This document shows positions 494-24,672 of a DNA stretch of 25,200 nt, piece by piece. Numbering within the stretch: position 1 is the first letter of the stretch; every line of letters starts with the position of its first letter. The notes under the pieces were generated by a model. The model ran no database searches, was not told the origin of the DNA, and was given only the letters and a program-made list of their open reading frames with translations. A program made the translations under genes and the position numbers. This DNA is from a virus (lineage: Duplodnaviria; Caudoviricetes). The stretch lies in the IMG/VR virus record IMGVR_UViG_3300037801_000077, positions 1 to 25,200 of that record; one strand, given 5' to 3'.

Positions 494-508
494 CGTTACA
501 TTGTAACG
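494..508. promoter_or_regulatory. Palindromic operator-like site 1, CGTTACATTGTAACG
   Basis: Perfect 7-1-7 inverted repeat, intergenic, repeated elsewhere in the window. Confidence 0.8.
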
Positions 509-528
509 ATTATGTAGGACTTACAAAC

Positions 529-1110
529 ATGAATATATTCTATCTTGACAAAACCTCAGAGAAAGCCGCTCTGTATCATTGCGACAAACATGTTCCCAAG
601 ATGATTTTGGAGACAGCCCAGATGCTGTCCACCGCCAAGCGACTGCTATGTCCCTCGCGGGACTATCATGCGTCTCTGGGTTCAGACATTTATCAGGCGG
701 CATATCCTAACCATCCATCGACTAGGTGGGTGCGTGAGTCTATTCACAACTACACATGGGCGTACTGCCTGTACCTTGACCTGTGTACGCAGTATCGCAA
801 CCGTTTCGACAAAATCCATTCAGCAGAGAAGCTACGACCAGAGCTTGGTAAGCTTCCCGACCCCCCTAGTGACCACCCGTTCTACTCGAATCCGTGGTCT
901 GAGCCGCCCTTATGTATGCCTGACCAATACAAGGATGCACCCTCTTGTGTTGAGGCATACCGCGCCTACTACTTCTTCGAGAAGCAATCGTTTGCCTCTT
1001 GGGAACGGTGCGCCAAGGGTATGCCTGCTTGGTTCAAGAGCAGGCTTGAATTGCAACGAGAGGTGCAGAAAGGAGTATTTTCAGGTGAGCAACGTACACA
1101 TACCCTTTAA
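529..1110 (+). CDS. Pyrimidine-dimer DNA glycosylase-like protein (DenV/endonuclease V-related)
   Basis: Start moved to ATG 529 (MNIFYLD; AGGA upstream). Motifs HCDKHVPKMILETAQMLST, NHPSTRW and VEAYRAYY are typical of this phage family. Confidence 0.7.
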   Translation: MNIFYLDKTSEKAALYHCDKHVPKMILETAQMLSTAKRLLCPSRDYHASLGSDIYQAAYPNHPSTRWVRESIHNYTWAYCLYLDLCTQYRNRFDKIHSAEKLRPELGKLPDPPSDHPFYSNPWSEPPLCMPDQYKDAPSCVEAYRAYYFFEKQSFASWERCAKGMPAWFKSRLELQREVQKGVFSGEQRTHTL

Positions 1111-1348
1111 GCCCGAAAAAAATGATGACGGGCGAAACCATGTTCTTAGTCTTTTTGAAGACGAAGAAACTGGGTGTCTCGAAGTGGCGCATATCGTGGA
1201 CGGGAAGATAGAAGGTGAACCATTTGCGTTCACTGGTATCACCACCCTTTTAGAGATAATGCTTGATGCAATGGTCTGCAACTTTGACAGTTTCAGACGA
1301 TTTGAAGTCAAGCTAGAACTTGTAAGCAGTAATGACAATAAGGACTAA
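1085..1348 (+). CDS. Hypothetical acidic protein (87 aa)
   Basis: GTG start at 1085 preceded by AAGGAG. It is the 3' part of track ORF 668..1348 and fills the gap after the previous gene. Confidence 0.65.
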   Translation: MSNVHIPFKPEKNDDGRNHVLSLFEDEETGCLEVAHIVDGKIEGEPFAFTGITTLLEIMLDAMVCNFDSFRRFEVKLELVSSNDNKD

Positions 1349-1356
1349 CAGACACG

Positions 1357-1548
1357 ATGAGTTTATATGTAAAACTACCTTTCTCCCGCGAACTCTTCGT
1401 GGAGAGAACCACAAAGTGCTTTTTTAGCTTAGAGACAACTCAAACAATGTTATATAGAGATATTCAAGCCTGTTTATTCGGGCTACGGATTATCTGGAGC
1501 AAACCAAATGTCGAAAAACGCAGACAGCGAAACCGACTTAGACATTAA
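1357..1548 (+). CDS. Hypothetical protein (63 aa)
   Basis: Fills the gap between neighbours, AGGA upstream, overlaps the next gene by 41 nt. Confidence 0.5.
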   Translation: MSLYVKLPFSRELFVERTTKCFFSLETTQTMLYRDIQACLFGLRIIWSKPNVEKRRQRNRLRH

Positions 1549-1873
1549 ATGTCTACATAAGATTAGTAGTTTACTGAACGAGTTTCGCAAATTAGACAAC
1601 GAAATGCCCATTCAGCAGGTACTAACCTTTCTTTGGGTGGCTTTGAAAGAGGCCGATGGGGTTAACATCAAGGACGTAGCGGATAACCTTGGCATCAGCC
1701 AAGCATCTGCCAGCCGCAATGTTAATGCCTTTATGAAGATAAATCGCTATAGGCGCACGGGTCATGACTTGATTGAAACGCATGAAGACCCAATGCACCG
1801 AAGCCGAAAGCTTTGTAACCTCACCCACAAAGGCACATTGGTAAAGAAAACATTATTGGAGATAATGCAATAA
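1508..1873 (+). CDS. MarR-like winged-helix transcriptional regulator (candidate repressor)
   Basis: HTH NIKDVADNLGISQASASRNV, wing EDPMHRSRKLCNLTHKG, GGAG RBS, directly upstream of the integrase. Confidence 0.85.
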   Translation: MSKNADSETDLDIKCLHKISSLLNEFRKLDNEMPIQQVLTFLWVALKEADGVNIKDVADNLGISQASASRNVNAFMKINRYRRTGHDLIETHEDPMHRSRKLCNLTHKGTLVKKTLLEIMQ

Positions 1874-1874
1874 A

Positions 1875-2852
1875 ATGACAATCGTACAGCGTGGTAATTC
1901 CTACCAAGCTTACGTTGCTCATGCATCCCAGAGACTACGGCGTAGTTTTAGAAGTAAAGCTGAAGCCGTAGCGTGGGAAGCATTGGCACGAGAAGCACTT
2001 GAAAACGATAAGCCCGTACCAAACCCGCCTAAAAACGGTGTTGGAAACGGGTGGACACTTAGAGAAGCATTCAATCGAACCTTCGCCCTTCATTGGGAGG
2101 GTGGTAGGTCTGAGCGAATAATGCTCATCAACATGACCAAGGCGATGGATTTTTTCGGTCGCCAGAAGTTAATCACTGATGTAACCACATCAGATGTGGA
2201 CGATTATATTCTCCACATGAAAGAAGCTGGGCTGTCGGGGGCGACCATCAATCGCCGCTTGGCAGTGCTTAGTAAAACCTTCAGGGTTGCACGAGAGTAC
2301 GATAAATACTCTGGTAACATAGTGTTCCGCCGACAACGTGAGGGTGAACACCGCCTGCGTTGGCTGGATGACGATGAAATCAGTCGTGTTGTAAGCACTG
2401 CTGGCAACCTTGGCTATGCGAACCTACAAGATGCCATCGTTGTGTCACTGGACACTGGGGTGCGTCAGGGTGAGCTAGGGCGTATCAAAGCCCATGACCT
2501 CATATCCGAAGGGCTTATGGTATGGGAAAGCAAGAATGATGTAGCCCGAACAATCCCTCTGACCTCACGTTCCAGAAAAATCATGGAGCGTAGGAAAGAC
2601 CGTGGAAACAATCTGCTGTTCAAAGAGGGATACTCACGCTCTGCGTGGGACAGAACCCGCACCAAGGCAGACCTTGGCGAGGACGTAGTGTGGCACACCC
2701 TGCGCCATACCTTCGCCAGTCGGTTGGTACAAAGAGGGGTGGCTCTTCAGGTCGTTAAGGAACTGATGGGACACAAAACTATGGCTGTGACCATGCGCTA
2801 TGCCAAGCTTGCGCCTCGCAATCTGGCAGACGCAATCTCCATGCTTGAATAA
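1875..2852 (+). CDS. int: Tyrosine recombinase (phage integrase)
   Basis: Catalytic residues in order: R (DTGVRQGE), K (ESKN), H-x-x-R (HTLRHT), H (LMGHK), Y (TMRY). N-terminal arm-binding-like region. Confidence 0.95.
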   Translation: MTIVQRGNSYQAYVAHASQRLRRSFRSKAEAVAWEALAREALENDKPVPNPPKNGVGNGWTLREAFNRTFALHWEGGRSERIMLINMTKAMDFFGRQKLITDVTTSDVDDYILHMKEAGLSGATINRRLAVLSKTFRVAREYDKYSGNIVFRRQREGEHRLRWLDDDEISRVVSTAGNLGYANLQDAIVVSLDTGVRQGELGRIKAHDLISEGLMVWESKNDVARTIPLTSRSRKIMERRKDRGNNLLFKEGYSRSAWDRTRTKADLGEDVVWHTLRHTFASRLVQRGVALQVVKELMGHKTMAVTMRYAKLAPRNLADAISMLE

Positions 2853-2862
2853 TAGCATGATT

Positions 2863-2890
2863 GTGGCGTATATCGTGGCATAGGTGTGGC
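2863..2890 (+). repeat. Three GTGGC direct repeats, putative integrase arm-type sites
   Basis: GTGGC at 2863, 2875 and 2886 (spacing 12 and 11) between the int stop and the tRNA. An inverted copy GCCAC lies at 3108-3112. Confidence 0.5.
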
Positions 2891-2977
2891 GAGCGTGGTG
2901 GAACTGGTAGACACAAGGGACTTAAAATCCCTCGCTATTTCAATGGCTTGCGGGTTCGACTCCCGCCGCTCGCACCA
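2889..2977 (+). tRNA. tRNA-Leu (anticodon UAA), probable attP core region
   Basis: Acceptor stem GCGAGCG/CGCTCGC plus ACCA, D loop GGAACTGGTAGAC, anticodon arm AGGGA-CTTAAAA-TCCCT, long variable arm, T arm GCGGG-TTCGACT-CCCGC. Confidence 0.95.
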
Positions 2978-3042
2978 CCCTTAAAAACTAAAGTCCAACC
3001 AATACCAGACTGCATATTCCCGAAACACTAGACAAATCAAAC

Positions 3043-3057
3043 CGTTACATTGTAACG
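3043..3057. promoter_or_regulatory. Palindromic operator-like site 2, CGTTACATTGTAACG
   Basis: Exact copy, located between the tRNA and the RNA polymerase unit. Confidence 0.8.
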
Positions 3058-3076
3058 CTTTTTAACGACAACACAT

Positions 3077-3105
3077 ATGCCGAAGCGTAAGACTTACACT
3101 ATGAT
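3077..3105 (+). promoter_or_regulatory. Possible host sigma70-type promoter
   Basis: ATGCCG-17 nt-TATGAT. The -10 matches 5/6 and the -35 is weak. Confidence 0.25.
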
Positions 3106-3116
3106 GTGCCACATAA

Positions 3117-3132
3117 TGGACACTATAGATGT
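3117..3132 (+). promoter_or_regulatory. Putative phage RNA polymerase promoter TGGACACTATAGATGT
   Basis: Contains GACACTATAGA, as in the SP6 promoter core; 15/16 identical to 5797-5812. Confidence 0.65.
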
Positions 3133-3176
3133 ATTAGGAAACGTAGGTAGTAGTACCCTAAAGGAAACCTATAGAG

Positions 3177-3350
3177 ATGGCTGTTAAGTACATCCTGATT
3201 GTATTCCTAGAAATGCAGAACGGCCTTCACCCTGTTGAAGCACAACTGGACATGTCTGCATATGAATGCATGAGAACTGCTCTCAAGATAAACACTGAAA
3301 GCACAACTGGCAGAATGGCGGTGTGTATGCCGCTTGCCAAAGGAGACTAG
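3177..3350 (+). CDS. Small hypothetical protein (57 aa), not in the ORF track
   Basis: MAVKYILIVFLEMQNGLHPVEAQLDMSAYECMRTALKINTESTTGRMAVCMPLAKGD; AAGGA upstream; the TAG abuts the RNAP ATG. Confidence 0.65.
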   Translation: MAVKYILIVFLEMQNGLHPVEAQLDMSAYECMRTALKINTESTTGRMAVCMPLAKGD

Positions 3351-5768
3351 ATGAAACTCATTGAACAACAATTCGAGTTAGAAAGTGAGATGCGCTCTAC
3401 AGGCGTAGAATACTATAAATCTCAAGTAGCCAAAGCTGTCGCCAGCGGAGGCGAAAGCAACACGCTGTATGGCATTCTTGCCATGAAACAAAGCGTAGAT
3501 GCCGTTACAGAAGCCATCAGGGTGTTCCTCGATGACAGCTTCAACGGAAAACCAAGTCGTGGAGCGTCTTCGGCATATTTGCTCAAGATGCTAGACGAAG
3601 AGGTAGCCGCTTATCTTGGCCTCAAGTTTGTGATGGATGGTATTAGCCACCAGCACTCTCTGACCAAAGTCGCAATGAAGATTGCTGGAGCTTTAGAAGA
3701 CGAGTTTAAGTTTGGCTGTTTCAAGGAACAAGAACCGAAGTGGTTCAACAAGATTGCTCGTGATGTAAACAAGCGAACATCTAATCGCTTGTACCGCCGC
3801 TATGCCATCATCCATACGATGAACAAGAAAGCTCTTATCGAATACGAGCCGTGGACAAAGCAGGAGAAGATGCACTTGGGTTGCAAGGTAATCGACCTGA
3901 TTATCCAATCTACTGGCATCTGTAAGCTCGTCACGCACACTTACGGGCGTAACCGTAGAATGCTCCATGTCACAGCTACCGATGAAACGATGGACTGGGT
4001 GAGCCGTGTGAACAAGCGCAGTGAGGCTTTGTCGCCTCGCTTCATGCCTTGTGTCATCCAACCGCGTCCGTGGTCATCCCCATTCTCTGGTGGATACCAC
4101 AGCAATCACATCCACCCGCTTCCGCTGGTCAAGACGACCAACAAGCGTTATTTCGATGAGCTTGAGTTCCATGAGATGCCAGAGGAATATGATGCTACCA
4201 ACGCATTGCAGAACACGGGCTGGCGGGTGAACCAGTGGGTGCTGGATGTTATGCAACAGTGCTGGGAGTCTGGTGAGGACTGGGGCGGTCTACCAGCCCG
4301 TAATCCGTTCCCGTTACCACCGTCACCCTTTCCCAACGTCAAGAAGTCGGATATGGACGAAGCCCAGCTTGGTCGTTTCGTTCAATGGAAACATGCGGCC
4401 TCTCGTGTCCATCAGGCAAATGCGCGTATGACCAGCAAGCGGATGCAACTGGTGCGGACGATGAACATGGCTGAAAAGTTCAGTGAGTTTGAGAAGTTCT
4501 TCTTTGTGTACCAAATGGATTTCCGTGGTCGTAAGTATGTGACCAGCAGTTTCCTATCGCCCCAAGGCCCAGACTATGCTCGTGCGTTATTGGAGTTTGG
4601 TGAGGGGAAACCGTTGGGCGACAGAGGCCGCTACTGGCTGGCTGTCCACGGGGCAAATGTGTTTGGCTATGACAAAGTCTCATTCGATGACCGCGTGGCG
4701 TGGGTCGAAGAGAACGAAGAAAACATATTGGCCTACGCCCGTGACCCATTTGAGGCGCGGGAGTGGACTAACGCTGACAAGCCTTGGTGCTTCCTAGCGT
4801 TCTGTCACGAATGGAAGCGGTGTGTGGTCGATGGTGGGGTCAGCTACCTGCCTGTGTCCCTTGATGGCTCTAATAACGGTCTACAGCATCTCTCAGCCAT
4901 GCTTCGGGATACCCGTGGTGCGCTTGCAACGAACCTGCGAAACTCAGATGTGCCGCAGGACATCTACCAAGACGTAGCTGATGCTGTGATTGACATGCTG
5001 AAGCGTGAGGATGACCCGATGGCTCGTCAGTGGTTGGACTTTGGTGTCAACCGCAAGACAACCAAGCGGCCTGTGATGGTCGTACCATACGGGGGACAGT
5101 TGTACTCGACCCGCCAGTATATTGAGGATTACATTCAAGAGCGTATTGAACTGGGTCATACCAACCCGTGGGGTGATGACCTGTTCGAGCCTAGCCGATA
5201 CCTGTCGGAGTTCGTTTGGCAAGCCATTGGCGGTGTCATTCAGTCGGCGCGTCAAGTGATGGACTGGCTACAGGAAGTAAGCTATCTTGTGTCCAGTGAG
5301 AATATCCCGCTGATTTGGGAAACCCCGACTGGGTTTCTGGTACACCAGATGTATCCAGAGATGCGCTCTCGCCGTATCACAACCACAATCGACAACACGC
5401 TCATCAAGCCTAGCTTGCGTGAGCCAAACCACCAGAAGACTGACCGAAGACGGGCAGTTAATGGAAGCAGTCCAAACTTCGTGCATTCGATGGATTCGTC
5501 AGCAATGACGAAAACAATCAATCGGTGCGTGAAGCTGGGCATCAAAGACTTTGCGATGATTCACGACAGCTACGGCACTCACGCTTGTGATACCGATGCG
5601 CTGTTCGCGGCGACTCGCGAAGCCTTTGTGGAGTTGTATCGTGACAACGATGTTTTAGAACAATTCCAAAAAGCGGCGGGAGAGGTGCTTGAAGAAGTAC
5701 CCACACCACCGCAGAGGGGCGACTTCAGTATTGAAGAAGTCCTAATGAGCGATTACTTTTTCGCTTAG
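3351..5768 (+). CDS. T7-like single-subunit DNA-directed RNA polymerase (gp1)
   Basis: Motifs DFRGRKY, LDGSNNGLQH (A), RKTTKRPVMVVPYG (B), PNFVHSMD, IHDS (C); AAGGAG RBS. Confidence 0.97.
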   Translation: MKLIEQQFELESEMRSTGVEYYKSQVAKAVASGGESNTLYGILAMKQSVDAVTEAIRVFLDDSFNGKPSRGASSAYLLKMLDEEVAAYLGLKFVMDGISHQHSLTKVAMKIAGALEDEFKFGCFKEQEPKWFNKIARDVNKRTSNRLYRRYAIIHTMNKKALIEYEPWTKQEKMHLGCKVIDLIIQSTGICKLVTHTYGRNRRMLHVTATDETMDWVSRVNKRSEALSPRFMPCVIQPRPWSSPFSGGYHSNHIHPLPLVKTTNKRYFDELEFHEMPEEYDATNALQNTGWRVNQWVLDVMQQCWESGEDWGGLPARNPFPLPPSPFPNVKKSDMDEAQLGRFVQWKHAASRVHQANARMTSKRMQLVRTMNMAEKFSEFEKFFFVYQMDFRGRKYVTSSFLSPQGPDYARALLEFGEGKPLGDRGRYWLAVHGANVFGYDKVSFDDRVAWVEENEENILAYARDPFEAREWTNADKPWCFLAFCHEWKRCVVDGGVSYLPVSLDGSNNGLQHLSAMLRDTRGALATNLRNSDVPQDIYQDVADAVIDMLKREDDPMARQWLDFGVNRKTTKRPVMVVPYGGQLYSTRQYIEDYIQERIELGHTNPWGDDLFEPSRYLSEFVWQAIGGVIQSARQVMDWLQEVSYLVSSENIPLIWETPTGFLVHQMYPEMRSRRITTTIDNTLIKPSLREPNHQKTDRRRAVNGSSPNFVHSMDSSAMTKTINRCVKLGIKDFAMIHDSYGTHACDTDALFAATREAFVELYRDNDVLEQFQKAAGEVLEEVPTPPQRGDFSIEEVLMSDYFFA

Positions 5769-5796
5769 TTATCCACTTTGGTAATATTCACCTTTG

Positions 5797-5812
5797 TGGA
5801 CATTATAGATGT
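5797..5812 (+). promoter_or_regulatory. Putative phage RNA polymerase promoter TGGACATTATAGATGT
   Basis: Near-identical to 3117-3132 and just downstream of gene 1, where T7-like phages have their first phage promoters. Confidence 0.65.
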
Positions 5813-5819
5813 CATGAAC

Positions 5820-5834
5820 CGTTACATTGTAACG
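5820..5834. promoter_or_regulatory. Palindromic operator-like site 3, CGTTACATTGTAACG
   Basis: Exact copy, 7 bp downstream of the promoter motif and ahead of the SSB gene. Confidence 0.8.
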
Positions 5835-5861
5835 ATTGTCGAGATGGAGAAAAAAAGACAA

Positions 5862-6488
5862 ATGGCTAACACAGTAACTACGCCTCTAGGCACGGCTTAT
5901 TATGCCTACATCTTCACACCTGATACGAAATTTGACGAGAACGGTGTGTACCAAGTGAACCTTCGTATGTCGAAGTCAGATGCCAAACCCTTGGTCAAGG
6001 TCATCGACAACACCATCGAAGAAACGATGGAGTCCTCTACATCCAAGAAGAAAAAGCTTGCACCCAAGCCTTACTTCAAAGCCACGGATGCGGAAGGCAA
6101 TGAGACTGGCGAGATTGAGTTCAAGTTCAAGCAGAAGGCAGTCATAAAAACCAAGAAGGGTGACATGAAAATGCAACCCAAGGTTTTCGATAGCAAAGGC
6201 AAGCCGCTTGTCGAGCAGATGCTCGTAGGCAATGGCTCACGCATCAAGATTGCATTCGAGCCTTATGGTTACGATGTCCCCAGCATTGGTGTTGGAGCAT
6301 CTCTACGCCTGAAGGCTGTCCAGATTGTTGACCTTGTAAACGCAGAAGTCGGTGGATTCGGCTTCGGTGAAGAGGACGGCAACTTCGTTGTTGAAGCAAA
6401 CAATAATAATGACAACACGGATGAGAGCGATGACGAAGAAGAAGACATCTTCGCCGAAGAAAACGAAGAATCAGACGGCGACTATTAA
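5862..6488 (+). CDS. Single-stranded DNA-binding protein (gp2.5-like)
   Basis: Start at ATG 5862 (GGAG upstream). Motifs TTPLGTAYYAY..PDTKF, GNGSRIK, GASLRLKAVQI; acidic tail ending in an aromatic residue. Confidence 0.92.
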   Translation: MANTVTTPLGTAYYAYIFTPDTKFDENGVYQVNLRMSKSDAKPLVKVIDNTIEETMESSTSKKKKLAPKPYFKATDAEGNETGEIEFKFKQKAVIKTKKGDMKMQPKVFDSKGKPLVEQMLVGNGSRIKIAFEPYGYDVPSIGVGASLRLKAVQIVDLVNAEVGGFGFGEEDGNFVVEANNNNDNTDESDDEEEDIFAEENEESDGDY

Positions 6489-6849
6489 GTTCCGTTCTAA
6501 ATTTGAGGAAACGGTAGCAGAAGCTCTGGGTGAATGTTGTCCCGACTACGAGTACGAAACATTGCGTATCCCGTATGTCGTGGAGCGAAACTACAACCCA
6601 GACTTCATACTTCCCAGCGGTATCATCATTGAAGCTAAAGGTTATTTCAAATCTGCTGACCAACGGAAACACAAGCTCATCAAAAAACAGCATCCCGACA
6701 AAGACATTCGGTTCGTGTTTCAGAAAGCTAGTGTCCGTGTTCAAGGAAGCAAACTCACTTGCGCCGAATGGTGTGAGCGATACGGCTTCCTGTATGCAGA
6801 AGGAAAAGTCCCCGAAGAATGGGCTAAGGAGAAAAACCAAAATGGCTAA
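6430..6849 (+). CDS. Endonuclease I / Holliday junction resolvase (gp3-like)
   Basis: FRSKFE, YNPDFILP, IIEAKG, DIRFVF, WCERYGF. Start uncertain (6421 or 6430). Confidence 0.92.
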   Translation: MTKKKTSSPKKTKNQTATIKFRSKFEETVAEALGECCPDYEYETLRIPYVVERNYNPDFILPSGIIIEAKGYFKSADQRKHKLIKKQHPDKDIRFVFQKASVRVQGSKLTCAEWCERYGFLYAEGKVPEEWAKEKNQNG

Positions 6850-7279
6850 AAGAAAAGATACTGATTACATCATCATTCACTGCTCTGCCACACCCCCGTC
6901 TATGGATGTGGGTGCGAAGGAGATTGATAAATGGCATCGCCAGCGTGGCTGGAGAAAAATCGGATACCACTTTGTCATCACCCGCGATGGAGACATTCAG
7001 CAGGGCAGAGAGCTAGACGAGATTGGCGCACATTGTCGTGGACTCAACTCCACGAGCGTGGGTGTCTGTCTCGTTGGTGGTGTTAATGCGGAAGGCGAAC
7101 CCGAAAGTAATTTTACCGATAAACAGTGGGCAAGCCTCGAAGAGTGCATCAAAGACTTACTACTCCCGTACTCCCATGCGGAAGTCACAGGTCACAACAA
7201 ACACTCGTCAAAAGCTTGTCCCTCATTTGATGTGGAAGAATGGTGGAAAGAAACGATAGCGAGTTCGTTCAGCATGTAG
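6842..7279 (+). CDS. N-acetylmuramoyl-L-alanine amidase (T7 lysozyme, gp3.5-like)
   Basis: Start at ATG 6842 with AAGGAG. Motifs IIHCSAT, IGYHFVI, GAHC, GH..KACPSF (zinc ligands). Confidence 0.93.
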   Translation: MAKRKDTDYIIIHCSATPPSMDVGAKEIDKWHRQRGWRKIGYHFVITRDGDIQQGRELDEIGAHCRGLNSTSVGVCLVGGVNAEGEPESNFTDKQWASLEECIKDLLLPYSHAEVTGHNKHSSKACPSFDVEEWWKETIASSFSM

Positions 7280-8865
7280 CTTGCCCAAGTTGCCCTTCGT
7301 CAGACGGCTTTGCGCTGTATGATGACGGTCACGGTTATTGCTTTGTGTGCGGCTACCACGCGAACAGCGGCTTCACGCCTAGCAAACCGAAAGAAACGAA
7401 ATTGACAAACCTAATTGAAGCGGGTGAACCCCGCGCACTTAAAAAGCGACAGTTGTCGCTGGAAACCTGTAAGAAATGGAACTACGCAGTTTCAACTTAC
7501 AATAATCAGACCGTTCAGGTAGCGAACTACACGGACGCTTCTGGGAGCATTGTCGCTCAGAAACTACGCTTTCCCAACAAGGACTTTTTGTTCCTTGGAG
7601 ACAGCAAGCAGGCTGGCCTGTACGGGCAGAGCCTGTGGCGGGACGGTGGCAAAATGGTCACCATTACCGAAGGCGAACTTGATGCCTTGAGCCTTTCGCA
7701 GGCTATGGGCAACAAGTGGCCTTGTGTAAGCATCAAGCGTGGCGCGGCAGGCGCGAAAAGAGACATTCAAGAATCTCTGGAGTGGCTCAACAAGTTTGAG
7801 ACTGTCGTTTTTATGTTTGACAATGATGACGCTGGTCGCAAAGCGGCGAAAGAATGCGCGGCACTGCTCCCACCAAACAAAGCCAAGATTGCCCAGTTGC
7901 CCCTGAAGGATGCCAGCGAGATGCTGGTAGCAGGCAAGGTGGACGAGCTTATCAACTGCATGTGGGGCGCAAAAGAGTTCCGACCAGACGGCATCCTCAA
8001 TGGTGCTGACCTCTGGGACGTAGTAACACGCGAAGACAATACCAAGTCGTTTCCATACCCATATGACGGACTGAACCAGAAGACCCTTGGGCTACGGCGT
8101 GGAGAGATTGTCACGGTGACTGCTGGGTCTGGCATAGGCAAGTCACAGTTATGTCGTGAGTTCGCTCACTACCTTCTGACCCAAGGCGAGACTATTGGCT
8201 ATATCGCTCTCGAAGAGAGTGTCCGCCGTACTGCTCTTGGCCTGATGTCGATTGCAGTCAACCTGCCCCTGCACTTGGGCAGTAAGGATGTGGACGAGAA
8301 GGACATGAAAGAAGCCTTCGACAGCACCTTGGGTACTGGGCGTGTCTACCTGTATGACCACTGGGGTTCGACTGAAAGCGAGAACCTCATCAGCAAAATC
8401 CGCTATCTGGCGAATGGGTGCGAATGCAGTTTCATCGTCCTTGACCACATTTCGATTGTCGTGAGTGGCCTAGAGGGTGGCGATGAACGCCGAATGATTG
8501 ACAACACCATGACCAAGCTTCGTGCGCTGGTCGAGGAGTTAGATATCGGCCTCATATTGGTCAGTCACCTCAAACGACCTGATGGCAAAGGCCATGAGGA
8601 AGGCGCACAGACATCTCTCTCACAGCTTCGCGGCTCTGCTTCGCTTGGGCAACTAAGTGACATCGTAATCGGCTGTGAGCGCAACCAACAGGATAACACT
8701 CATGCAAACATTACCACACTGCGTGTTCTCAAGAACCGCTGGACGGGTGAGACAGGCGAGTGTTGTTCATTGGCTTGGGACAGAGACACTGGTCGCATGG
8801 TCGAAGTAGACCTAGCGGAATTACAAACCGACTTTGAAACGCTGGATAACACAGAGGGGTACTAG
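7240..8865 (+). CDS. DNA primase-helicase (gp4-like)
   Basis: Zinc finger CPSC..CFVC, TOPRIM EGELDA and FDNDDAG, Walker A AGSGIGKS, LDHISI, LRGS, KNRWTG. Confidence 0.96.
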   Translation: MVERNDSEFVQHVACPSCPSSDGFALYDDGHGYCFVCGYHANSGFTPSKPKETKLTNLIEAGEPRALKKRQLSLETCKKWNYAVSTYNNQTVQVANYTDASGSIVAQKLRFPNKDFLFLGDSKQAGLYGQSLWRDGGKMVTITEGELDALSLSQAMGNKWPCVSIKRGAAGAKRDIQESLEWLNKFETVVFMFDNDDAGRKAAKECAALLPPNKAKIAQLPLKDASEMLVAGKVDELINCMWGAKEFRPDGILNGADLWDVVTREDNTKSFPYPYDGLNQKTLGLRRGEIVTVTAGSGIGKSQLCREFAHYLLTQGETIGYIALEESVRRTALGLMSIAVNLPLHLGSKDVDEKDMKEAFDSTLGTGRVYLYDHWGSTESENLISKIRYLANGCECSFIVLDHISIVVSGLEGGDERRMIDNTMTKLRALVEELDIGLILVSHLKRPDGKGHEEGAQTSLSQLRGSASLGQLSDIVIGCERNQQDNTHANITTLRVLKNRWTGETGECCSLAWDRDTGRMVEVDLAELQTDFETLDNTEGY

Positions 8866-8867
8866 CA

Positions 8868-9140
8868 ATGGCAAAAATAAAGAGCGAAGTAGAAATCACA
8901 GTTGATGTGACTCTGGAGAAAGATGGGCTGGGTGTACTTGCGTTTTCCGACCCTGAAACACCGCCTCAACTTTTTTCAATCACCTATGACGCTCTTTTCG
9001 ATGAAACTGATGAGCTATATGGCAATGGGCGTGGGGGTCTGATTAGTGACCCTGAAGACAAAGAAACCGTCCTAGCCATTGCACATCAGCTTCGTGACCT
9101 TGCCGATGACCTCGCCAACCTGTGCGGACAGACACTGTAA
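8868..9140 (+). CDS. Hypothetical acidic protein (90 aa)
   Basis: GAGGGG RBS; tightly packed between the helicase and polymerase genes. Confidence 0.75.
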   Translation: MAKIKSEVEITVDVTLEKDGLGVLAFSDPETPPQLFSITYDALFDETDELYGNGRGGLISDPEDKETVLAIAHQLRDLADDLANLCGQTL

Positions 9141-9147
9141 CTAAAAA

Positions 9148-9162
9148 CGTAACAATGTAACG
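9148..9162. promoter_or_regulatory. Palindromic operator-like site 4, CGTAACAATGTAACG (one mismatch)
   Basis: Occupies most of the 25-nt gap before the DNA polymerase ATG. Confidence 0.7.
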
Positions 9163-9165
9163 ATT

Positions 9166-14419: not shown

Positions 14420-14425
14420 AACATC

Positions 14426-14867: not shown

Positions 14868-14870
14868 GTT

Positions 14871-15200
14871 ATGTGTGACGGCGGCGGAGGCGGCGGCGGA
14901 GGCGGAAGCTTCGGCGGCGGCGGTGGCGGCGGAGGTGGCTTCGGCGGCATGGGCGGCGGCATTGGCGGCTTCGGCGGTGGCGGCGGAGACATAGGTTATG
15001 GTGGCGGCTCTGGTGGCTCTGCTATGTACAAAGGCCGTATTACTGACCAAAAAGAAGCAGAGGCCATTGCAGATAGCTTAAATGCCCTTGCAAGGCGTAA
15101 ACGCAGAGGCAAACGCAGATTTAGAAGTCAGATTGTCCAAGGCGAAAACATAGGACTAAATATCCCAGCGCAAGGCGCGTCAGTAAACGTACCAAGTTAA
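14871..15200 (+). CDS. Small Gly-rich virion protein, paralog-like to the upstream gene
   Basis: MCD plus poly-Gly, RRGKRRFRS, GLNIP; stop abuts the portal start. Confidence 0.7.
   Translation: MCDGGGGGGGGGSFGGGGGGGGGFGGMGGGIGGFGGGGGDIGYGGGSGGSAMYKGRITDQKEAEAIADSLNALARRKRRGKRRFRSQIVQGENIGLNIPAQGASVNVPS
14880..14987 (+). repeat. GGC-rich coding microsatellite with 30-nt period
   Basis: (GGC)n runs; GCTTCGGCGG at 14908, 14938 and 14968. Confidence 0.85.
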
Positions 15201-15201
15201 A

Positions 15202-16794
15202 ATGGATAATAAAAAGAAAACTGTAGCGCATCGCTACGCTCAACTAGAGTCAGAGCGGCACACGTTCCTTGAGAGGGGGCGAGATGCTTCGGAGCTAACA
15301 CTCCCAACGCTTCTGCCACCGCAAGGGCATTCTAGTGCTACCGTTTACAAAACACCCTACCAATCCGTAGGGGCGCGTGGGGTCAACAACCTAGCTTCCA
15401 AGCTACTTATGACCCTTCTACCACCTAACTCACCTTTCTTTCGCCTGACGATTGATGACTTCGACATTGAAGAGTTAGCGGGACGTAAAGACGCTCGTGG
15501 TGCTGTCGAAGAGGCATTGGCACGGCTTGAGCGCACGGCACAGCAAGACATTGAAGCCTTGGCTGTTCGTGTCCCCATTCATGAAGCACTGAAACAACTA
15601 ATCGTTACTGGTAACGCCCTAGTCTATATGCCACAGGAAGGCGGCATGAAGGTGTATCGCCTTGACCGCTATGTTGTTAAGCGTGACACAATGGGTAACG
15701 TGATGGAAATCATCACTAAAGAAAGTGTGTCTCCACAAGTTCTGCCCAAGGCCGCACAGGATATAATCTACGGTGAGGGCAACAACTACAATAAGGAAGA
15801 CATAACCAACGCAAAAGACTGCGACCTCTACACACATGTCTGTCGCCGTGGTGACAAGTTTGACATACATCAAGAGGTAAAAGGTGTTGAGATACCTAAG
15901 ACCCGTGGCTCATACCCAGCAGAACGCCTACCATTTATACCACTACGGTTTACCCGCATTGACGGTGAAGACTATGGTCGTGGTTATGTAGAAGAATACA
16001 TTGGTGACCTCAGAAGCCTAGAGGCTCTGACCCGTGCAATCGTTGAGGGCGCGGCGGCATCAGCCAAGGTATTGTTCCTCGTGCGTCCTAACGGGACTAC
16101 GAAACAGCGTGTCCTGTCGCAAGCACCAAATGGTGGCATTGTGTCAGGTGACAGCAATGATGTTAGCACTTTACAGGTGCAGAAGCAGGGCGACTTCAGG
16201 GTAGCCCAAGAAACATCGTTGGAAATAGGTAAGCGACTTAGCTTTGCTTTCCTGCTTAACAACTCAGTACAACGTAAGGCAGAGCGTGTAACCGCTGAAG
16301 AAGTGCGTTTCATGGCGCAGGAGCTAGAGACTGCTCTTGGTGGTGTGTACAGCATTCTTTCTATGGAGTTCCAACGCCCCTTCGTAAACCTACTGCTGGC
16401 TCGTCTGGAGCAACAAGGCAAGATGCCTAAGATGCCAAAGGACACAGTCAAACCACAAATCGTAACAGGACTAGAGGCTCTTGGGCGCGGACAGGACTTG
16501 AGCAAGTTGGCTCAACTTCTGCAATATCTGCAACCTCTAGGACAAGATGTCATTTCTCAAGAACTAAACGTAGCCGATTACATAGACAGATTAGCGGCTT
16601 CCTTGGGAATTGATACTGGTGGACTAATCAAGTCCCCAGAACAACGGCAAGCTGAACAACAAGCCTCACAACAGGCCAATCAGCAAGCCATGATGCAAGA
16701 GGCCATGAAGAACATGGCTGAACGTGCCGCCCCTAATCTCGCTGAGAGAGGCATGGATTATTTAGAGGGGCAACAGCAAGAAATGGAAAACTAA
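15202..16794 (+). CDS. Head-tail connector (portal, gp8-like)
   Basis: PYQSVGARGVNNLASKL, GEDYGRGYVEEY, ERVTAEEVR, LGGVYS. Confidence 0.96.
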   Translation: MDNKKKTVAHRYAQLESERHTFLERGRDASELTLPTLLPPQGHSSATVYKTPYQSVGARGVNNLASKLLMTLLPPNSPFFRLTIDDFDIEELAGRKDARGAVEEALARLERTAQQDIEALAVRVPIHEALKQLIVTGNALVYMPQEGGMKVYRLDRYVVKRDTMGNVMEIITKESVSPQVLPKAAQDIIYGEGNNYNKEDITNAKDCDLYTHVCRRGDKFDIHQEVKGVEIPKTRGSYPAERLPFIPLRFTRIDGEDYGRGYVEEYIGDLRSLEALTRAIVEGAAASAKVLFLVRPNGTTKQRVLSQAPNGGIVSGDSNDVSTLQVQKQGDFRVAQETSLEIGKRLSFAFLLNNSVQRKAERVTAEEVRFMAQELETALGGVYSILSMEFQRPFVNLLLARLEQQGKMPKMPKDTVKPQIVTGLEALGRGQDLSKLAQLLQYLQPLGQDVISQELNVADYIDRLAASLGIDTGGLIKSPEQRQAEQQASQQANQQAMMQEAMKNMAERAAPNLAERGMDYLEGQQQEMEN

Positions 16795-16798
16795 TAAG

Positions 16799-17596
16799 AT
16801 GGCTGAGACAGAAACACTAAATACACATCAAGAACCCGCCCCTGAAACGCAAGAGTATGTCGATAGCATGGTTGCGAAAGGCGAGGCGGCACTTAATGCT
16901 GGTCAGGACGAACAACAAGAACAACGTCCCGACTGGCTTCCTGAGAAGTTCCAAGACCCTGCACAACTAGCACAAGCATATGCAGAGCTAGAAAAGCAGT
17001 TCAGTTCTCGTGATTCTCAGGAAGAACAAGAATACGAATTTGAAGAGGGTGATGACGAAGACTTTGAAAATGTAGAAGCCGCAGATGAATATCTGAAACA
17101 AAACGGCGTTGATTTTCAAGAACTGTCTGAAGCCTTCTGGGAAAACAACGGATTATCTGAAGAGCAGTATGACTTGCTGGAAGCAGTAGGTATTCCTTCA
17201 GATATCGTAGACCAATATATTGACGGTCAAATGGCTGTCGTTAACCAAACACAGGCGGCTGTCTTTGATGCCGCAGGTGGCGAGGAAAGCTATGCCCAAA
17301 TGATGAACTGGGCAAGTAATACGCTTTCTGAGCGCGAACAGGACGCTTATAACGCGGCAGTAAATAGCGGAGATACAGAATCCGTTCTGCTCGCGGTGCA
17401 AGGTCTTAATGCTCGTTTCCGTAGTGAATATGGCGATAACCCGACCCTCGTACAAGGTCAGGCCGCTGATGTCACGGCGGGTGCTTTTCAGTCGGTTGCA
17501 GAGATTACTGCGGCGATGTCAGACCCAAGGTACGAGAAAGACCCCGCTTATCGGGGTGCTGTTGAAGCCAAGCTTCAGCGGTCTTCGGTAATTTAA
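16799..17596 (+). CDS. Capsid scaffolding protein (gp9-like)
   Basis: Acidic; RPDWLPEKF, LAQAYAELEK, GGEESY..WA, AMSDPRYEKDPAYR. Confidence 0.92.
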   Translation: MAETETLNTHQEPAPETQEYVDSMVAKGEAALNAGQDEQQEQRPDWLPEKFQDPAQLAQAYAELEKQFSSRDSQEEQEYEFEEGDDEDFENVEAADEYLKQNGVDFQELSEAFWENNGLSEEQYDLLEAVGIPSDIVDQYIDGQMAVVNQTQAAVFDAAGGEESYAQMMNWASNTLSEREQDAYNAAVNSGDTESVLLAVQGLNARFRSEYGDNPTLVQGQAADVTAGAFQSVAEITAAMSDPRYEKDPAYRGAVEAKLQRSSVI

Positions 17597-17620
17597 GCTG
17601 TCTCCATTTCAAGTGTCAGT

Positions 17621-17647
17621 CGGTGGGGGGCTTCTTGCCCCCTGCCG
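17621..17647 (+). other. GC-rich stem-loop between scaffold and capsid genes
   Basis: CGGTGGGGGGC-TTCTT-GCCCCCTGCCG, 11 bp including two G-U pairs; no U tract. Confidence 0.6.
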
Positions 17648-17735
17648 CAACTTGTCTGAAGCCAAAGCAGAACCTTTGACCCCGTGCGCGGGACAATCCT
17701 TGGTGAAGTGAGTAGTGAATGCAGGAACACTTAAT

Positions 17736-17750
17736 CGTTACAATGTAACG
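17736..17750. promoter_or_regulatory. Palindromic operator-like site 6, CGTTACAATGTAACG
   Basis: 17732-17753 is the exact 22-bp reverse complement of 491-512. Confidence 0.8.
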
Positions 17751-17791
17751 AAACCTACATCAACACTAGAATATCATATGAGGTGATAAAA

Positions 17792-18901
17792 ATGGCAATG
17801 CAAGGTGCATCCAATCCAGCCTATGACGTATCCCGTCTAGGTCAAACAAACCTCTCAGGTGATGTCCGTTCTCTCTTCCTGAAATTATATGCAGGTGAGG
17901 TTCTGACTTCCTTTGAGGCCAAAAACATCATGATGCCTCTGATGCGTACTCGTACCATCAGCAAAGGCAAATCAGCTTCGTTCCCAATGTTGGGCCGTAC
18001 AACTGCTGAGTACCACACCCCTGGAAATGAAATCACGGGCGGTCAGGTACGCGCTTCTGAGCGTATCGTCACGATTGACGATTTGCTGATTAGCTCTCAG
18101 TTTATTGCCAGCATTGATGAAGCCATCAACCACTACGATGTACGTTCAACGTACTCGAAAGAAGCAGGTATCGCGTTGGCTACTGAGGCCGACAAGAACA
18201 TCCTGCGCCAAGCTCTGAAAGCTTCGCTGGCTACTAATGCCACTCGTGCGGCGGCTCTCGTTCAGGACTACACAGCGTTCTCCGAAGAAGACTTTACTGA
18301 TAACATTACTATCGGTGCGGCTTCTGGTGATGTGACTGACCCAGCTAAATTGGCTAAGTCAATCTTTGACGCTCGTAAAGAAATGGACAAGAAAAACGTA
18401 CCGCAAGAAGGTGCTTTCGTTGTCCTTGGCCCAGACCAGTACTACGCTCTGTTAGACGTAACTGATGGTAACAAGCTCGTATACATGAACCGCGACTTCG
18501 GTGGCACAGGCTCTGTAGCCTCTGCTGTTGTACCGCAAATCGCTGGTATGCCTGTATACATGAGCAACAATCTTGTTGTGTCTGACCTTGTCGAAACCTC
18601 TGGTGGTTCTAAAGGTCAATCTAAAGGTAATCGTCCGCTTGCCAACACTGCTGGTTCAGGCCGCACGACTGCTTACGACATCACCAACACTACGACTGAC
18701 GGTGTCAACCTCGTTGACATTGCCGCTAAAGTCAAAGGTCTGGTAATGACTAAAGATGCCGTAGCAACCGTGAAGCTTCTCGACCTTGGTGTTGAAAGCG
18801 AATACCAAATCAATCGTCAGGGAACTCTGATGGTTGCTAAGTATGCAATGGGACATAATATCCTACGTCCTGCTTGCTCTATTGCACTCCTGAGTGTATA
18901 A
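17792..18901 (+). CDS. Major capsid protein (gp10-like)
   Basis: ATG 17792 after GAGGTG; LFLKLYAGEV, GKSASFP..GR, ITIDDLL-like VTIDDLL, YAMGHNILRP. Confidence 0.96.
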   Translation: MAMQGASNPAYDVSRLGQTNLSGDVRSLFLKLYAGEVLTSFEAKNIMMPLMRTRTISKGKSASFPMLGRTTAEYHTPGNEITGGQVRASERIVTIDDLLISSQFIASIDEAINHYDVRSTYSKEAGIALATEADKNILRQALKASLATNATRAAALVQDYTAFSEEDFTDNITIGAASGDVTDPAKLAKSIFDARKEMDKKNVPQEGAFVVLGPDQYYALLDVTDGNKLVYMNRDFGGTGSVASAVVPQIAGMPVYMSNNLVVSDLVETSGGSKGQSKGNRPLANTAGSGRTTAYDITNTTTDGVNLVDIAAKVKGLVMTKDAVATVKLLDLGVESEYQINRQGTLMVAKYAMGHNILRPACSIALLSV

Positions 18902-18925
18902 TTAGGATGAATGGTTAACTCCGTT

Positions 18926-18940
18926 CGTTACAGTGTCGGG
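18926..18940. promoter_or_regulatory. Degenerate operator-like site CGTTACAGTGTCGGG
   Basis: First 11 nt match site 5; the right half is replaced by the terminator stem. Confidence 0.4.
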
Positions 18941-18973
18941 GGATGCTCTCTTTGAGGGTGTCCCCCTTTTTTT
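18938..18973 (+). terminator. Terminator after the major capsid gene (T-phi position)
   Basis: GGGGGATGCTCTC-TTT-GAGGGTGTCCCCC followed by seven T. Confidence 0.9.
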
Positions 18974-18987
18974 CATTTGAGAATCTA

Positions 18988-19359
18988 ATGTCTACAGCCA
19001 CGAAGCGCGACCCTGAAAAATGGGCGAGGGCAAAGGCTCGTGCAAGGGCAAGAATGGGTGGAAAGCACTCTGCCCGTGCGATGCAACTTGCCGTGAAATA
19101 CTACAAGGATGCAGGGGGGACTTACTCTGGCCCGAAGAAATCCACTAACAAATTACGGCGATGGTCGAAACAAGGGTGGACGTATGCAGGAAAGCGCGGT
19201 GCGTCCCGCTACTTACCAAAGAAAGCGATTGCAAGTCTTTCACCATCCGAAAGGGCGGCAACGAATAGAAAGAAGCGAGAAGACACTGCCGCTGGAAAAC
19301 AATACTCAAGTCAACCCAGAGCTATTGCTCAAAAAACAAGAAGATATAGGACAGCGTGA
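18988..19359 (+). CDS. Highly basic hypothetical protein (123 aa)
   Basis: ATG 18988 (MSTATKRDPEKW); Lys/Arg-rich; SARAMQLAVKYYKDAGGTY and RYLPKKA motifs. Confidence 0.8.
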   Translation: MSTATKRDPEKWARAKARARARMGGKHSARAMQLAVKYYKDAGGTYSGPKKSTNKLRRWSKQGWTYAGKRGASRYLPKKAIASLSPSERAATNRKKREDTAAGKQYSSQPRAIAQKTRRYRTA

Positions 19360-19484
19360 TGCCAGACCTAGACGGAAAAACATACGCATACAACAAAGAA
19401 GGTATGCGGAAATACAAGCAAGACAAAAAGAAGAAAATGGCTAGTAATCGCCGCTATCTAAAAAGGAATAATAACTATGCATGA
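19359..19484 (+). CDS. Small basic protein (41 aa), not in the ORF track
   Basis: MPDLDGKTYAYNKEGMRKYKQDKKKKMASNRRYLKRNNNYA; TGATG coupling, AGGA RBS, overlaps the next start. Confidence 0.7.
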   Translation: MPDLDGKTYAYNKEGMRKYKQDKKKKMASNRRYLKRNNNYA

Positions 19485-20124
19485 GAAAGGCCACAAAGGC
19501 CCGTTTAGCAAGGTGGGTAGTAGTCAACGACTGCGAAACCAAGCCACCCGCGCACGAGGCAACCAGATTGGTAAAACGCTGAAGCGGAATGACCAGTTCA
19601 AACAATACTACGGACGCGACCCCAAGTCAGGGGCGGTGTTTCTGATTTCACATAGGAAGGGGCAACCCGCGAGATACAAGCGTGTAAACATGCGGAAACA
19701 AGGGCCATCTATAAACCCACAGAAAGGGCAACGAACAGGCCGTGACTTTACCATCGCAAAAAGAGGTAGTCCTACTGATGAACGCCGTGGACGAGTAGTC
19801 CTCGCAGGGCCAAAGGTAAACCCAAACAGAAAGCCAGAGAAAAAGGCAGAAGCACCAAAGGCAGACACACCAAGGCCCAAGGCTCGTCCAGCCACTTCTC
19901 CCAACGCATCTGGTAAATCAGGTCGCTCCTCTTTCCAAAAAGCTTATGCAAAAGCACGGGCGGCTTACAAAAAAGGTGGCGCGGCAACTTTCAAGTTCAA
20001 TGGCAAACCCTACACCGTTGCTACAAAAGAAGAGCTTAAAAAGGCTGGTGGCAAGTACGGCAAGAAACTTCAGGCTATGCTCAAGAAGAACCAGAAGAAA
20101 AAGCCTGAGTCGGTTGCTACATGA
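19477..20124 (+). CDS. Highly basic hypothetical protein (215 aa)
   Basis: AAGGA RBS; Lys/Arg-rich; SFQKAYAKARA..TFKFNGKPYT module; ATGA coupling to the next gene. Confidence 0.8.
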   Translation: MHEKGHKGPFSKVGSSQRLRNQATRARGNQIGKTLKRNDQFKQYYGRDPKSGAVFLISHRKGQPARYKRVNMRKQGPSINPQKGQRTGRDFTIAKRGSPTDERRGRVVLAGPKVNPNRKPEKKAEAPKADTPRPKARPATSPNASGKSGRSSFQKAYAKARAAYKKGGAATFKFNGKPYTVATKEELKKAGGKYGKKLQAMLKKNQKKKPESVAT

Positions 20125-20450
20125 GTACACCTGCATGGCAACGCAAAGCAGGGAAGAACCCAAAGGGCGGTCTGAACGCCAAGGGCAGAGCATCATACAA
20201 AGCTCAAACAGGCGGGACACTGAAAGCTCCCGTAAAAGGCGCACCGAAAACTCCAGAACAAATAAAGCGGAAGGGAAGCTTCCTAGTAAGGATGGGGAGC
20301 GCAAAAGGGCCACTGATGAAGAACGGGAAGAAGACCCGTTTGAAGCTCAGTTTAGAGGCATGGGGTCACTTTGGTGACAAAGCCTCTGCTGTAGCAAAAG
20401 GCCGTAGGCTTCTCGCCCGTTACCAAAACCTAAAAAAGAAAAAGGCTTAG
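20121..20450 (+). CDS. Highly basic hypothetical protein (109 aa)
   Basis: PAWQRKAGKNPKGGLNAKGRASY..RKGSFLVRM; ends 3 nt before the tail tube A gene. Confidence 0.8.
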   Translation: MSTPAWQRKAGKNPKGGLNAKGRASYKAQTGGTLKAPVKGAPKTPEQIKRKGSFLVRMGSAKGPLMKNGKKTRLKLSLEAWGHFGDKASAVAKGRRLLARYQNLKKKKA

Positions 20451-23627: not shown

Positions 23628-24097
23628 TGGCATACTATAGACCTTCAGTTTACGAGGATTGCAAAGTCCTTGCCCCACGACTACGCGATGTTGACTTGAG
23701 AGAAGTTCAAGCGTCCAGCGGCTCTAATGGTTTCCAATCATTAGCGTATTCGTATTGGGCTTCTTACGAGTGCAACACTATTATCAGCGACAAAGAGGAC
23801 ATTATCGGTATGTTTGGTGTCGCAAAGGCTACAGATACCAATGGTTTCCCTTGGCTTCTGATGTCCGATGGTATTTACGAAAAAGGTTTTGCACGGCAGT
23901 TCATCCCGCAAGCGCAAGAATGGGTTGACCGTATGCAAGAAGAAACACCCATTCTAAACAACTGGGTGTCAGAAGATAATCGCGTAGCAATACGCTGGCT
24001 CAAGTCTTTGGGCTTTATGTTCATTAACAAGATTGAGGAATTTGGTGTCGGTAAAAAACCGTTCTACGAATTTGTAAGGATTAATAATAATGTGTGA
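23624..24097 (+). CDS. Internal virion protein A / GNAT-like protein (gp13 position)
   Basis: LRDVDLREV, GMFGV, PWLL, LNNWVSEDNRVAIRWLKSLGF (GNAT-like C-terminal motif). Start may be 23627. Confidence 0.75.
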   Translation: MMAYYRPSVYEDCKVLAPRLRDVDLREVQASSGSNGFQSLAYSYWASYECNTIISDKEDIIGMFGVAKATDTNGFPWLLMSDGIYEKGFARQFIPQAQEWVDRMQEETPILNNWVSEDNRVAIRWLKSLGFMFINKIEEFGVGKKPFYEFVRINNNV

Positions 24098-24656
24098 CCC
24101 AGTAACTGGCATGTATATTATAGGTGGCCTCCAAGCGGCCTCTGGTTATGCCGCTTATCAAGAAGGCAAGTTCAATGCTGAACAGCAGGAAGCGGCATTC
24201 AAGAGAAACCGTGAGGAAGCTATTTCATCAACTATGCGGGAAGCTCGCGCACTTGCGATGCAAAGAGAGCAAGTTCGGGGTCAGTCATTTGATAAGAAGA
24301 GAGAGGCTAGACTAGAAACCCTTCGAGCAAAAGGACGGGCGCAGGCTAGTGAAAGTGGCGTAGTTCAAAACGCCAACGTGCTTGACCGTGAGATTACGCG
24401 CCAAGGTCTGAGGAATGCAGACTCAATAGCAAGAAACCTAGAGGCTAGAGAAGCCCAGCTTGACCTTGAACGCGCTGGACTAACGTCCCGAATGAACACC
24501 CGTATTAACTCAGTAGCCCGTGGTGTCAAACCAAGCGCAACGGCGGCTCTCATTTCAACAGGAGCGCAGGTTGCAGGAACAGCCGCAAACTTCGGTGCTT
24601 TTGATGCTGATGGGCCTTTCAGTAAACCGAAGACAACAAAAACAAACAAAGATTAA
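24090..24656 (+). CDS. Internal virion (ejection) protein B (gp14-like)
   Basis: MCDP start, hydrophobic N-terminus, helical Ala/Gln/Arg body, ASESGV motif, synteny. Confidence 0.75.
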   Translation: MCDPVTGMYIIGGLQAASGYAAYQEGKFNAEQQEAAFKRNREEAISSTMREARALAMQREQVRGQSFDKKREARLETLRAKGRAQASESGVVQNANVLDREITRQGLRNADSIARNLEAREAQLDLERAGLTSRMNTRINSVARGVKPSATAALISTGAQVAGTAANFGAFDADGPFSKPKTTKTNKD

Positions 24657-24657
24657 C

Positions 24658-24672
24658 CGTTACATTGTAACG
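24658..24672. promoter_or_regulatory. Palindromic operator-like site 7, CGTTACATTGTAACG
   Basis: Exact copy in the 32-nt gap between the gp14-like and gp15-like genes. Confidence 0.8.

Follow-up and report, generated by a model that had tools for sequence, protein, structure and literature searches.

A network of palindromic sites in uncultured T7-like phages, with lineage-specific versions that switch in concert

The window analysed here, 25,200 nucleotides corresponding to positions 1 to 25,200 of the IMG/VR virus record IMGVR_UViG_3300037801_000077 (Duplodnaviria; Caudoviricetes), makes up the left-hand two-thirds of a T7-like phage that is uncultured, and it carries the palindrome CGTTACA-N-TGTAACG dispersed along its length. 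From our comparison of this window with related phages, we find that the palindrome network is real, is under selection, is wider than the window alone, and exists in motif versions that are specific to lineages. An earlier note on this DNA had proposed the MarR-like protein encoded at 1508-1873 as the reader of the palindromes; in our analysis this protein is probably not the reader, and the product of the first early gene of these phages is put forward, tentatively, in its place.

Six copies of the palindrome in the window are exact (494-508, 3043-3057, 5820-5834, 14384-14398, 17736-17750, and 24658-24672), one carries a single mismatch (9148-9162), and one carries three (18926-18940); all eight positions are as given in the earlier note. 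Shuffled versions of the window gave on average 0.82 matches at up to three mismatches, and none of 100 shuffles reached eight. By our own gene list the coding fraction of the window is 96.75%, with 4.1% of its 15-mers touching non-coding DNA, whereas all seven palindromes with at most one mismatch do so (P about 2e-10), which bears out their placement between genes or at gene ends. The copy at 494 follows a terminator-like hairpin and stands 20 bp before the glycosylase-like gene; it is conserved in the close relatives L001 and L003 and in G001, a relative without the MarR gene. The copy at 3043 follows tRNA-Leu, with its centre at -78 of the promoter-like motif (3117) ahead of the RNA polymerase (RNAP) gene; it has a 2-bp-spacer form in L124 and is missing from G001, whose segment there is replaced. 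The centre of the 5820 copy is at +19 of the phage promoter-like motif (5797) before the SSB gene, and the same place holds the lineage's own motif in L124, L263, and L264. The copy at 9148 lies 3 bp before the DNA polymerase start, where relatives differ by another single mismatch. The copy at 14384 overlaps the stop codon of the ribonucleotide reductase (RNR) gene, covering its final 13 bases, and is centred at -24 of a promoter-like site (14404). The copy at 17736 precedes the major capsid gene and is replaced by a 2-bp-spacer form in L425, and the copy at 24658 lies between the gp14-like and gp15-like genes. For the four good sites other than those at 3043, 5820, and 14384, no promoter-like motif occurs within 50 bp.

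The eighth coordinate was correct as a position but does not stand as a network copy: 18926-18940 is a degenerate half-site that merges into the stem (18938-18966) of the terminator after the capsid gene, an intrinsic terminator-like hairpin at 18938-18976 on the plus strand. Taken alone it is within chance, and a lone half-site also occurs inside the RNAP gene at 3503; its left part is kept in six of the seven lineage-A sequences examined, with two mismatches in three of them. The extended consensus, drawn from 39 site copies in six lineage-A sequences, is AA(C/T)CGTTACA-N-TGTAACG(A/G)TT, and the central base, rightly described as free but listed as T, A, or G, is any of the four. The flanked copies occur in both orientations exactly as claimed; the flank pair is most often an unpairable C.A on the mRNA strand (19 of 39 copies) and the reverse in 8 of 39, orthologous copies not being independent. 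Placement and two-way flanks support the proposal that these are sites in double-stranded DNA forming a real network at the boundaries of modules. At 15598-15618, inside the portal gene of the window, stands a perfect match to the 2-bp-spacer form of L124 and L425, with one change in G001; it may be a chance occurrence in coding sequence.

The network was traced among relatives by a de novo palindrome scan of the window and 102 RNAP-bearing loci, and later of 31 further contigs, one of them cut at 20 kb. Among the first of these loci, palindrome families were strong in the lineage of the window and in L263 but smaller in L264, L320, L321, and L330. Altogether, four network lineages carry seven motif versions. 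Lineage A, that of the window, has CGTTACA-N-TGTAACG, with a 2-bp-spacer form in L124 and L425; lineage B has GTTAACT-N-AGTTAAC (up to 13 copies) or TTAACC-NN-GGTTAA (9-12 copies); lineage C has TGTCTCA-N-TGAGACA (16 copies) or TGTCGCA-N1/N2-TGCGACA (12 copies), with both spacer lengths combined in G007; and lineage D has GTTTACA-N-TGTAAAC (13 copies). For G010 and G012 the de novo scan ranked a coding repeat above the network, and sites were counted there by pattern. In a DNA polymerase tree of 31 rows, lineages A, B, and C form one clade (support 95/94) and lineage D stands apart in an unresolved fork. No palindrome family with P below 0.02 at 6-7-bp arms was found in G013-G018, G024-G026, G028, LUZ100, HTVC200P, or Pasto; with arms of 5 bp, the families that came up in LUZ100 and HTVC200P were false, and Pasto showed a repeat resembling its promoter. 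LUZ100 has a GCGCAT-AAG-ATGCGC dyad within its host promoters P1 and P2. Smaller families were also seen in other T7-like phages (TCTCACT-N-AGTGAGA, TGTCAAA-NN-TTTGACA, and TTAACA-N-TGTTAA), at 102-1306 of G035, 5003-11284 of G036, 3489-14334 of L010, and 386, 587, and 6699 of L139. A scan of viral contigs with the 2-bp-spacer motif (34 of 64 parts) gave no locus with at least two window-protein matches or with an RNAP, MarR, capsid, or portal match, and a metagenome scan by the RNAP N-terminus returned the G001 contig again and nothing else.

The sites are most crowded at the left end of the genomes. L001 and other close relatives that reach further left than the window have four additional early-region sites, and two to three sites precede the first gene at the left end of network contigs. 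The early region holds 0.83-1.58 sites per kb against 0.08-0.26 elsewhere, a four- to elevenfold difference, in all seven contigs tested. Most sites lie between a stop codon and the following ribosome-binding site, and several are 28-45 bp downstream of host-type promoters. In lineages B-D, some lie in frame within the integrase (int), DNA polymerase (pol), primase, exonuclease, or RNR genes. A phage promoter motif occurs within 50 bp of 6 of 29 sites in lineage A and none of 48 in lineage B, and of none of the 62 lineage C and D sites, where the promoter pattern may not apply. In L493, six short CTATAG-type repeats (4074-4190) stand between the terminase gene and the left-end sites.

Between the window and G001, differences fall at 2 of 84 site bases against 47 of 330 flank columns; site bases have thus changed far less than their flanks, which is indicative that the sites are under selection. 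The versions themselves change abruptly between close relatives. G005 and G007 are 94.7% identical over 8.4 kb, and from one to the other TGTCTCA/TGAGACA becomes TGTCGCA/TGCGACA, both arms together, at the three sites that could be aligned (16 G005 sites were tried by the flank rule, of which 12 did not align and one gave a spurious match). Inside the DNA polymerase gene this switch turns CLIETD into CRIATD, altering two residues of the protein. The spacer is similarly changed in L124, a phage 92.5% identical to the window: it is 2 bp long at both sites there. The simplest cause of such concerted switching would be a sequence-specific partner that changes between close phages.

A candidate for this partner is the first early gene, which lies left of the window (about 3 kb away in L001) and is known from relatives. 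This gene, of the type at 99-899 of L001, encodes 180-300 amino acids with a helical core and a Lys/Ala-rich tail. It was found in all eight network contigs first seen with a left end, and in G020. A search with a profile of eight first-gene proteins yielded 19 proteins from the database, and a common pattern runs through an alignment of 21 sequences; the profile gave no match at E below 0.05 in any network-free contig, and no such gene was seen by eye at six visible network-free left ends. The scan for the gene returned 10 loci (two of them contigs already in the set), all 10 with palindromes just upstream; counted over 12 first genes, 10 have a site within 300 bp and 8 have one at -31 to -42. 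Across the G005/G007 switch it is the most diverged shared gene, at 29% identity against 95-98% for core genes, and one predicted helix segment differs by half-site type.

We therefore offer, tentatively and with somewhat less than even confidence, a reading in which the palindromes would be docking sites for a phage-made, fast-evolving dimer, most likely the product of this first early gene, damping transcription block by block. The protein would be made at once from a host-type promoter, would dimerise, and would then bind the palindromes. Binding just upstream of its own start may limit its synthesis, and binding between early genes and at module boundaries may form a roadblock that times the early-to-late change; the transcription of an entering genome could thereby be damped with or without integration. 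It is more doubtful that this gene founds a new family of phage DNA-binding proteins reading a private genome-wide palindrome code independent of lysogeny, with the protein and all its sites changing together between near-identical phages. If this is true, each lineage would have its own code of self-recognition and exclusion.

Several observations weigh against the first gene as the reader. Its DNA binding and its roadblock role are putative, and the gene itself sits outside the window, seen in relatives alone. The first genes of G020 and L001 are 43% identical and the motif is the same; those of G008 and G012 are 29% identical with no motif change; and two subtypes of 31% identity have the 3-bp-spacer motif of lineage B in common. 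Co-occurrence of gene and motif is weak evidence because of shared ancestry, lineages A, B, and C being one clade. The profile was seeded with sequences chosen by position, and the conservation of the helix in lineage B was built into the search pattern. G035 and G036, which have families of three to four sites, gave no match to the first gene. The gene has no informative Pfam match, and the Atlas leads are weak (DUF3102 at 0.85). Structure searches, run on the G004 model (helical, with a predicted local distance difference test score, pLDDT, of 78.6), recognised no DNA-binding fold: there was no viral fold match at E of 0.001 or below, and the best PDB-wide hit (Z 5.7) was to generic helices. 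No solved-structure match fell under E 0.08, and two queries found no match among 50,697 GenBank phages. No blastp family common to all four lineages and missing from network-free phages was found. Two other candidates for a common reader were tried and rejected: the early gene at 2673-3143 of L001 (a weak DUF7303 lead) has matches in lineage A only, and a helix-turn-helix gene carried by lineages B and C shows 87% identity between G005 and G007, on either side of the switch, and has no match in lineages A and D or in G002.

MarR-type proteins are dimers that bind palindromes, and this general knowledge speaks for the reader first proposed, the MarR-like protein, acting as a lysogeny repressor, in which case the MarR-less relatives would be recent losses. 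The gene lies directly upstream of the integrase and ahead of RNAP, the layout of a temperate T7-like module. Repression through sites flanking the RNAP promoter has been proposed (in the accessible text of PMC10134795, citing Boeckman 2022), lineages A, B, and D are mostly MarR-bearing, and the variable position of the MarR helix is His in both genomes with a 4-bp spacer. Nevertheless, the palindrome does not appear to be restricted to MarR-bearing phages. In G001/L125, 91% identical to the window over a 12-kb core, int comes straight after the upstream gene, and tblastn, phmmer, and profile searches detect no MarR, yet eight sites are kept, the sole missing one being that in its replaced tRNA segment. 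At 2628-3771 of G001/L125 the integrase is kept (90%), MarR, a 63-aa open reading frame (ORF), and tRNA-Leu are gone, and a new 61-aa ORF follows int. The lineage C contigs G005-G007 gave no MarR or int match in covered early regions, and they carry the densest network, of up to 16 sites, and switch motif. G001 and these three contigs are 63-75% complete, so that they may have a displaced MarR gene, although the syntenic place of MarR is covered in each. Conversely, 15 of 16 MarR-bearing loci outside lineage A (some being near-duplicates or fragments) have no network, neither do two loci from a MarR scan of bacterial genomes, and the window motif has no match at up to two mismatches in LUZ100 or HTVC200P. 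The expected co-variation of motif with recognition helix failed in both directions: the window and G002 share the helix SQASASRN and differ in motif, and L263 and G002 share the motif and differ in helix. The palindrome nearest the RNAP promoter, at -78 in the window, is more than 1 kb off in G001, G003, G004, G011, and L263. Altogether we consider it improbable that the MarR-like protein reads the palindromes. The earlier note held that retention of the motif without the regulator would point to a host factor; such retention is what we found, but the pointer does not simply follow because near-identical phages switch motif in concert.

A different motif, M2 (of the TTACCAAAGTG.. type), is a better candidate for the MarR operator. 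In the window it occurs at 5770-5785 on the minus strand, at -30 of the promoter, and in a weaker form at about 3000-3015. A matrix trained on four lineage-B contigs also finds it in lineage A; in ten contigs of the two lineages its place is -30/-32 relative to the post-RNAP promoter, and it recurs behind the tRNA. Further places are 9006 in L001 and 4206 and 6975 in L003, and it is present in G002-G004, G011, G022, and L263. It is degraded in the MarR-less G001, has no promoter-linked match in lineage C, and is also altered in L124 and L126, which may or may not carry MarR. As a shuffled window gives 0-2 matches to the matrix, it is the fixed position alone that is significant. Since this position matches the proposal of MarR binding around the RNAP promoter (PMC10134795, accessible text), M2 would fit a MarR operator better than the palindrome does, which further weakens the case for MarR as reader of the network.

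Three other explanations have to be set against a transcription-damping first-gene protein. A phage-made binder, whether the first gene or another small protein, could use the sites structurally, by coating, looping, or protecting the entering DNA. Site density is highest at the end that enters first in T7-like phages, which is in keeping with such a role, as are the few sites near phage promoter motifs and those in frame inside int, pol, primase, and RNR genes. The authors on Cluster O mycobacteriophages infer likewise for their own repeat, in the accessible part of PMC4351075. Against it, most sites lie between a stop codon and the next ribosome-binding site, several follow host-type promoters at 28-45 bp, and no ParB or MatP family was found among the 117 non-core proteins (45-330 aa) scanned; we rate the structural role as rather unlikely. 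It is likewise unlikely that a host protein reads the sites and that differences between lineages reflect differences between hosts. The lack of a protein family common to the four lineages and the persistence of the motif without MarR would suit a host reader, and the 13-bp core of the window motif is two positions from the E. coli matS site (PMC3116907, accessible text). However, the motifs of the other lineages are unlike matS, motif and spacer switch between phages that are 92-95% identical, and G007 alone has two spacer lengths. A host search by tRNA matched 3 of 401 genomes at E of 1e-22 or below (best 91%), and no host was assigned. Lastly, each of the versions could fold into a stem of 6 bp closed by a loop of 3-4 nt, and many copies adjoin ribosome-binding sites, as would be expected of small RNA hairpins acting in processing, pausing, or translational control. 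These hairpins are weak (-4 to -6.5 kcal/mol, and -0.6 for 9148), the antisense strand often forms the stronger one, flanks are found either way round, and complementarity extends to the would-be loop bases, all of which make this the least credible explanation and a highly improbable one.

The gene order of the window is a glycosylase-like gene, the MarR-like gene, a tyrosine integrase, tRNA-Leu, RNAP, a replication block, and a structural block; the MarR-like gene, the integrase, tRNA-Leu, RNAP, and the promoter-like motifs are on the plus strand. The MarR-like winged-helix regulator (1508-1873) matches Pfam MarR_2 at E 0.0012, below the cut-off, and phrog_9665 at E 2e-28, and is 37-46% identical to the LUZ100 and pelagiphage MarRs. 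It is followed by the tyrosine integrase (1875-2852; PF00589, E 1.8e-20) and by tRNA-Leu(TAA) at 2889-2977, which is likely the attP region. The T7-type RNAP (3351-5768; PF00940, E 1e-104) is less than 40% identical to its best GenBank matches from cultured phages. In G024-G026, G028, G035, and G036, RNAP is apparently encoded in two ORFs (e.g., 12012-12809 and 12806-14455 of G036), the split being suggested in G024 and G028 by partial tblastn matches alone. Putative promoters for the phage RNAP, with the motif TGGACA(C/T)TAT, are found in non-coding DNA before RNAP (3117-3129, kept in lineages A and B), before SSB (5797-5809), and in weaker form at the head of the structural block (14404-14416). 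A sigma-70 scan of window positions 1-20000 was at chance level (16 found, 17.5 expected). The window also holds an RNR with matches to B12-dependent (class II) domains (12492-14396), a glycine-rich ORF of 9-15-base repeats directly before the portal gene (14871-15200), and a block of small, very basic genes, including DUF6321, between the capsid and tail genes (18988-20450).

Textbooks use T7-like phages as the example of control through a polymerase and its promoters. The uncultured group has a further layer, of sites along the whole genome, which persists where the lysogeny module is missing and is rewritten in concert even inside essential genes. The natural pairs G005/G007 (one base per arm) and window/L124 (spacer) make the reader directly testable, and such switch pairs could show the role of dispersed dyad repeats in general, those of Cluster O included. 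Our observations also emphasize the caution to be exercised before a neighbouring MarR is assigned such a network by default, and offer M2 as a separate candidate for its operator. In line with the earlier note, which knew of no such system in T7-like phages, our literature search found no account of one, subscription papers and supplements being outside its scope; Boeckman 2022 may describe sites beyond those reported in the LUZ100 paper.

Among known systems, stoperators are read by the immunity repressor. The Cluster A stoperators, to which the network had been likened, are asymmetric and oriented with transcription (PMC4351075, accessible text); the likeness holds for distribution, with many dispersed copies in short intergenic gaps and a plausible roadblock role, and breaks down for symmetry and the link to lysogeny, the present sites being dyads in either orientation that are kept in phages without an integrase. 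In the LUZ100-type model, MarR sites surround the RNAP promoter (PMC10134795, citing Boeckman 2022), and a legend in the pelagiphage preprint 10.1101/410191 names MarR. As far as the accessible texts go, the window resembles that module in its MarR-int-tRNA-RNAP layout and in the phage promoter before RNAP, and M2 fits the model better than does the palindrome network, which spans the genome, is kept where MarR is missing, and went undetected in LUZ100 and HTVC200P. The matS site is a 13-bp palindrome scattered over the chromosome for the host protein MatP (PMC3116907, accessible text), and near as the window core is to it, none of the five versions found in lineages B-D matches. The KorB protein of RK2 acts at long range on palindromic OB sites (PMC11790492, accessible text), one element-encoded protein reading central-base palindromes element-wide and far from promoters. 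RK2 is, however, a different type of element, and no ParB/KorB family was found among the scanned non-core proteins, the weak DUF3102 lead apart. The conserved inverted repeats of phiC31 are likewise element-wide palindromes for one protein, although our literature search did not return them. Of the cases described so far, the nearest is a 17-bp dyad repeat in Cluster O mycobacteriophages, present in more than 30 copies with an unexplained function (PMC4351075, accessible text). Both are short perfect dyads with a free centre, scattered over the genome with a higher density at one end, in part intragenic, mostly off promoters, and found also in phages that have no integrase. The palindrome differs in sequence from the Cluster O repeat as printed there, and belongs to T7-like phages with their own RNAP, at 7-16 copies per contig, in seven versions that switch in concert between close relatives and with a candidate reader gene. 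In essence, the network appears to be a variant of known but unexplained dyad-repeat networks, with the T7-like setting and the concerted switches of version as what would be new here.

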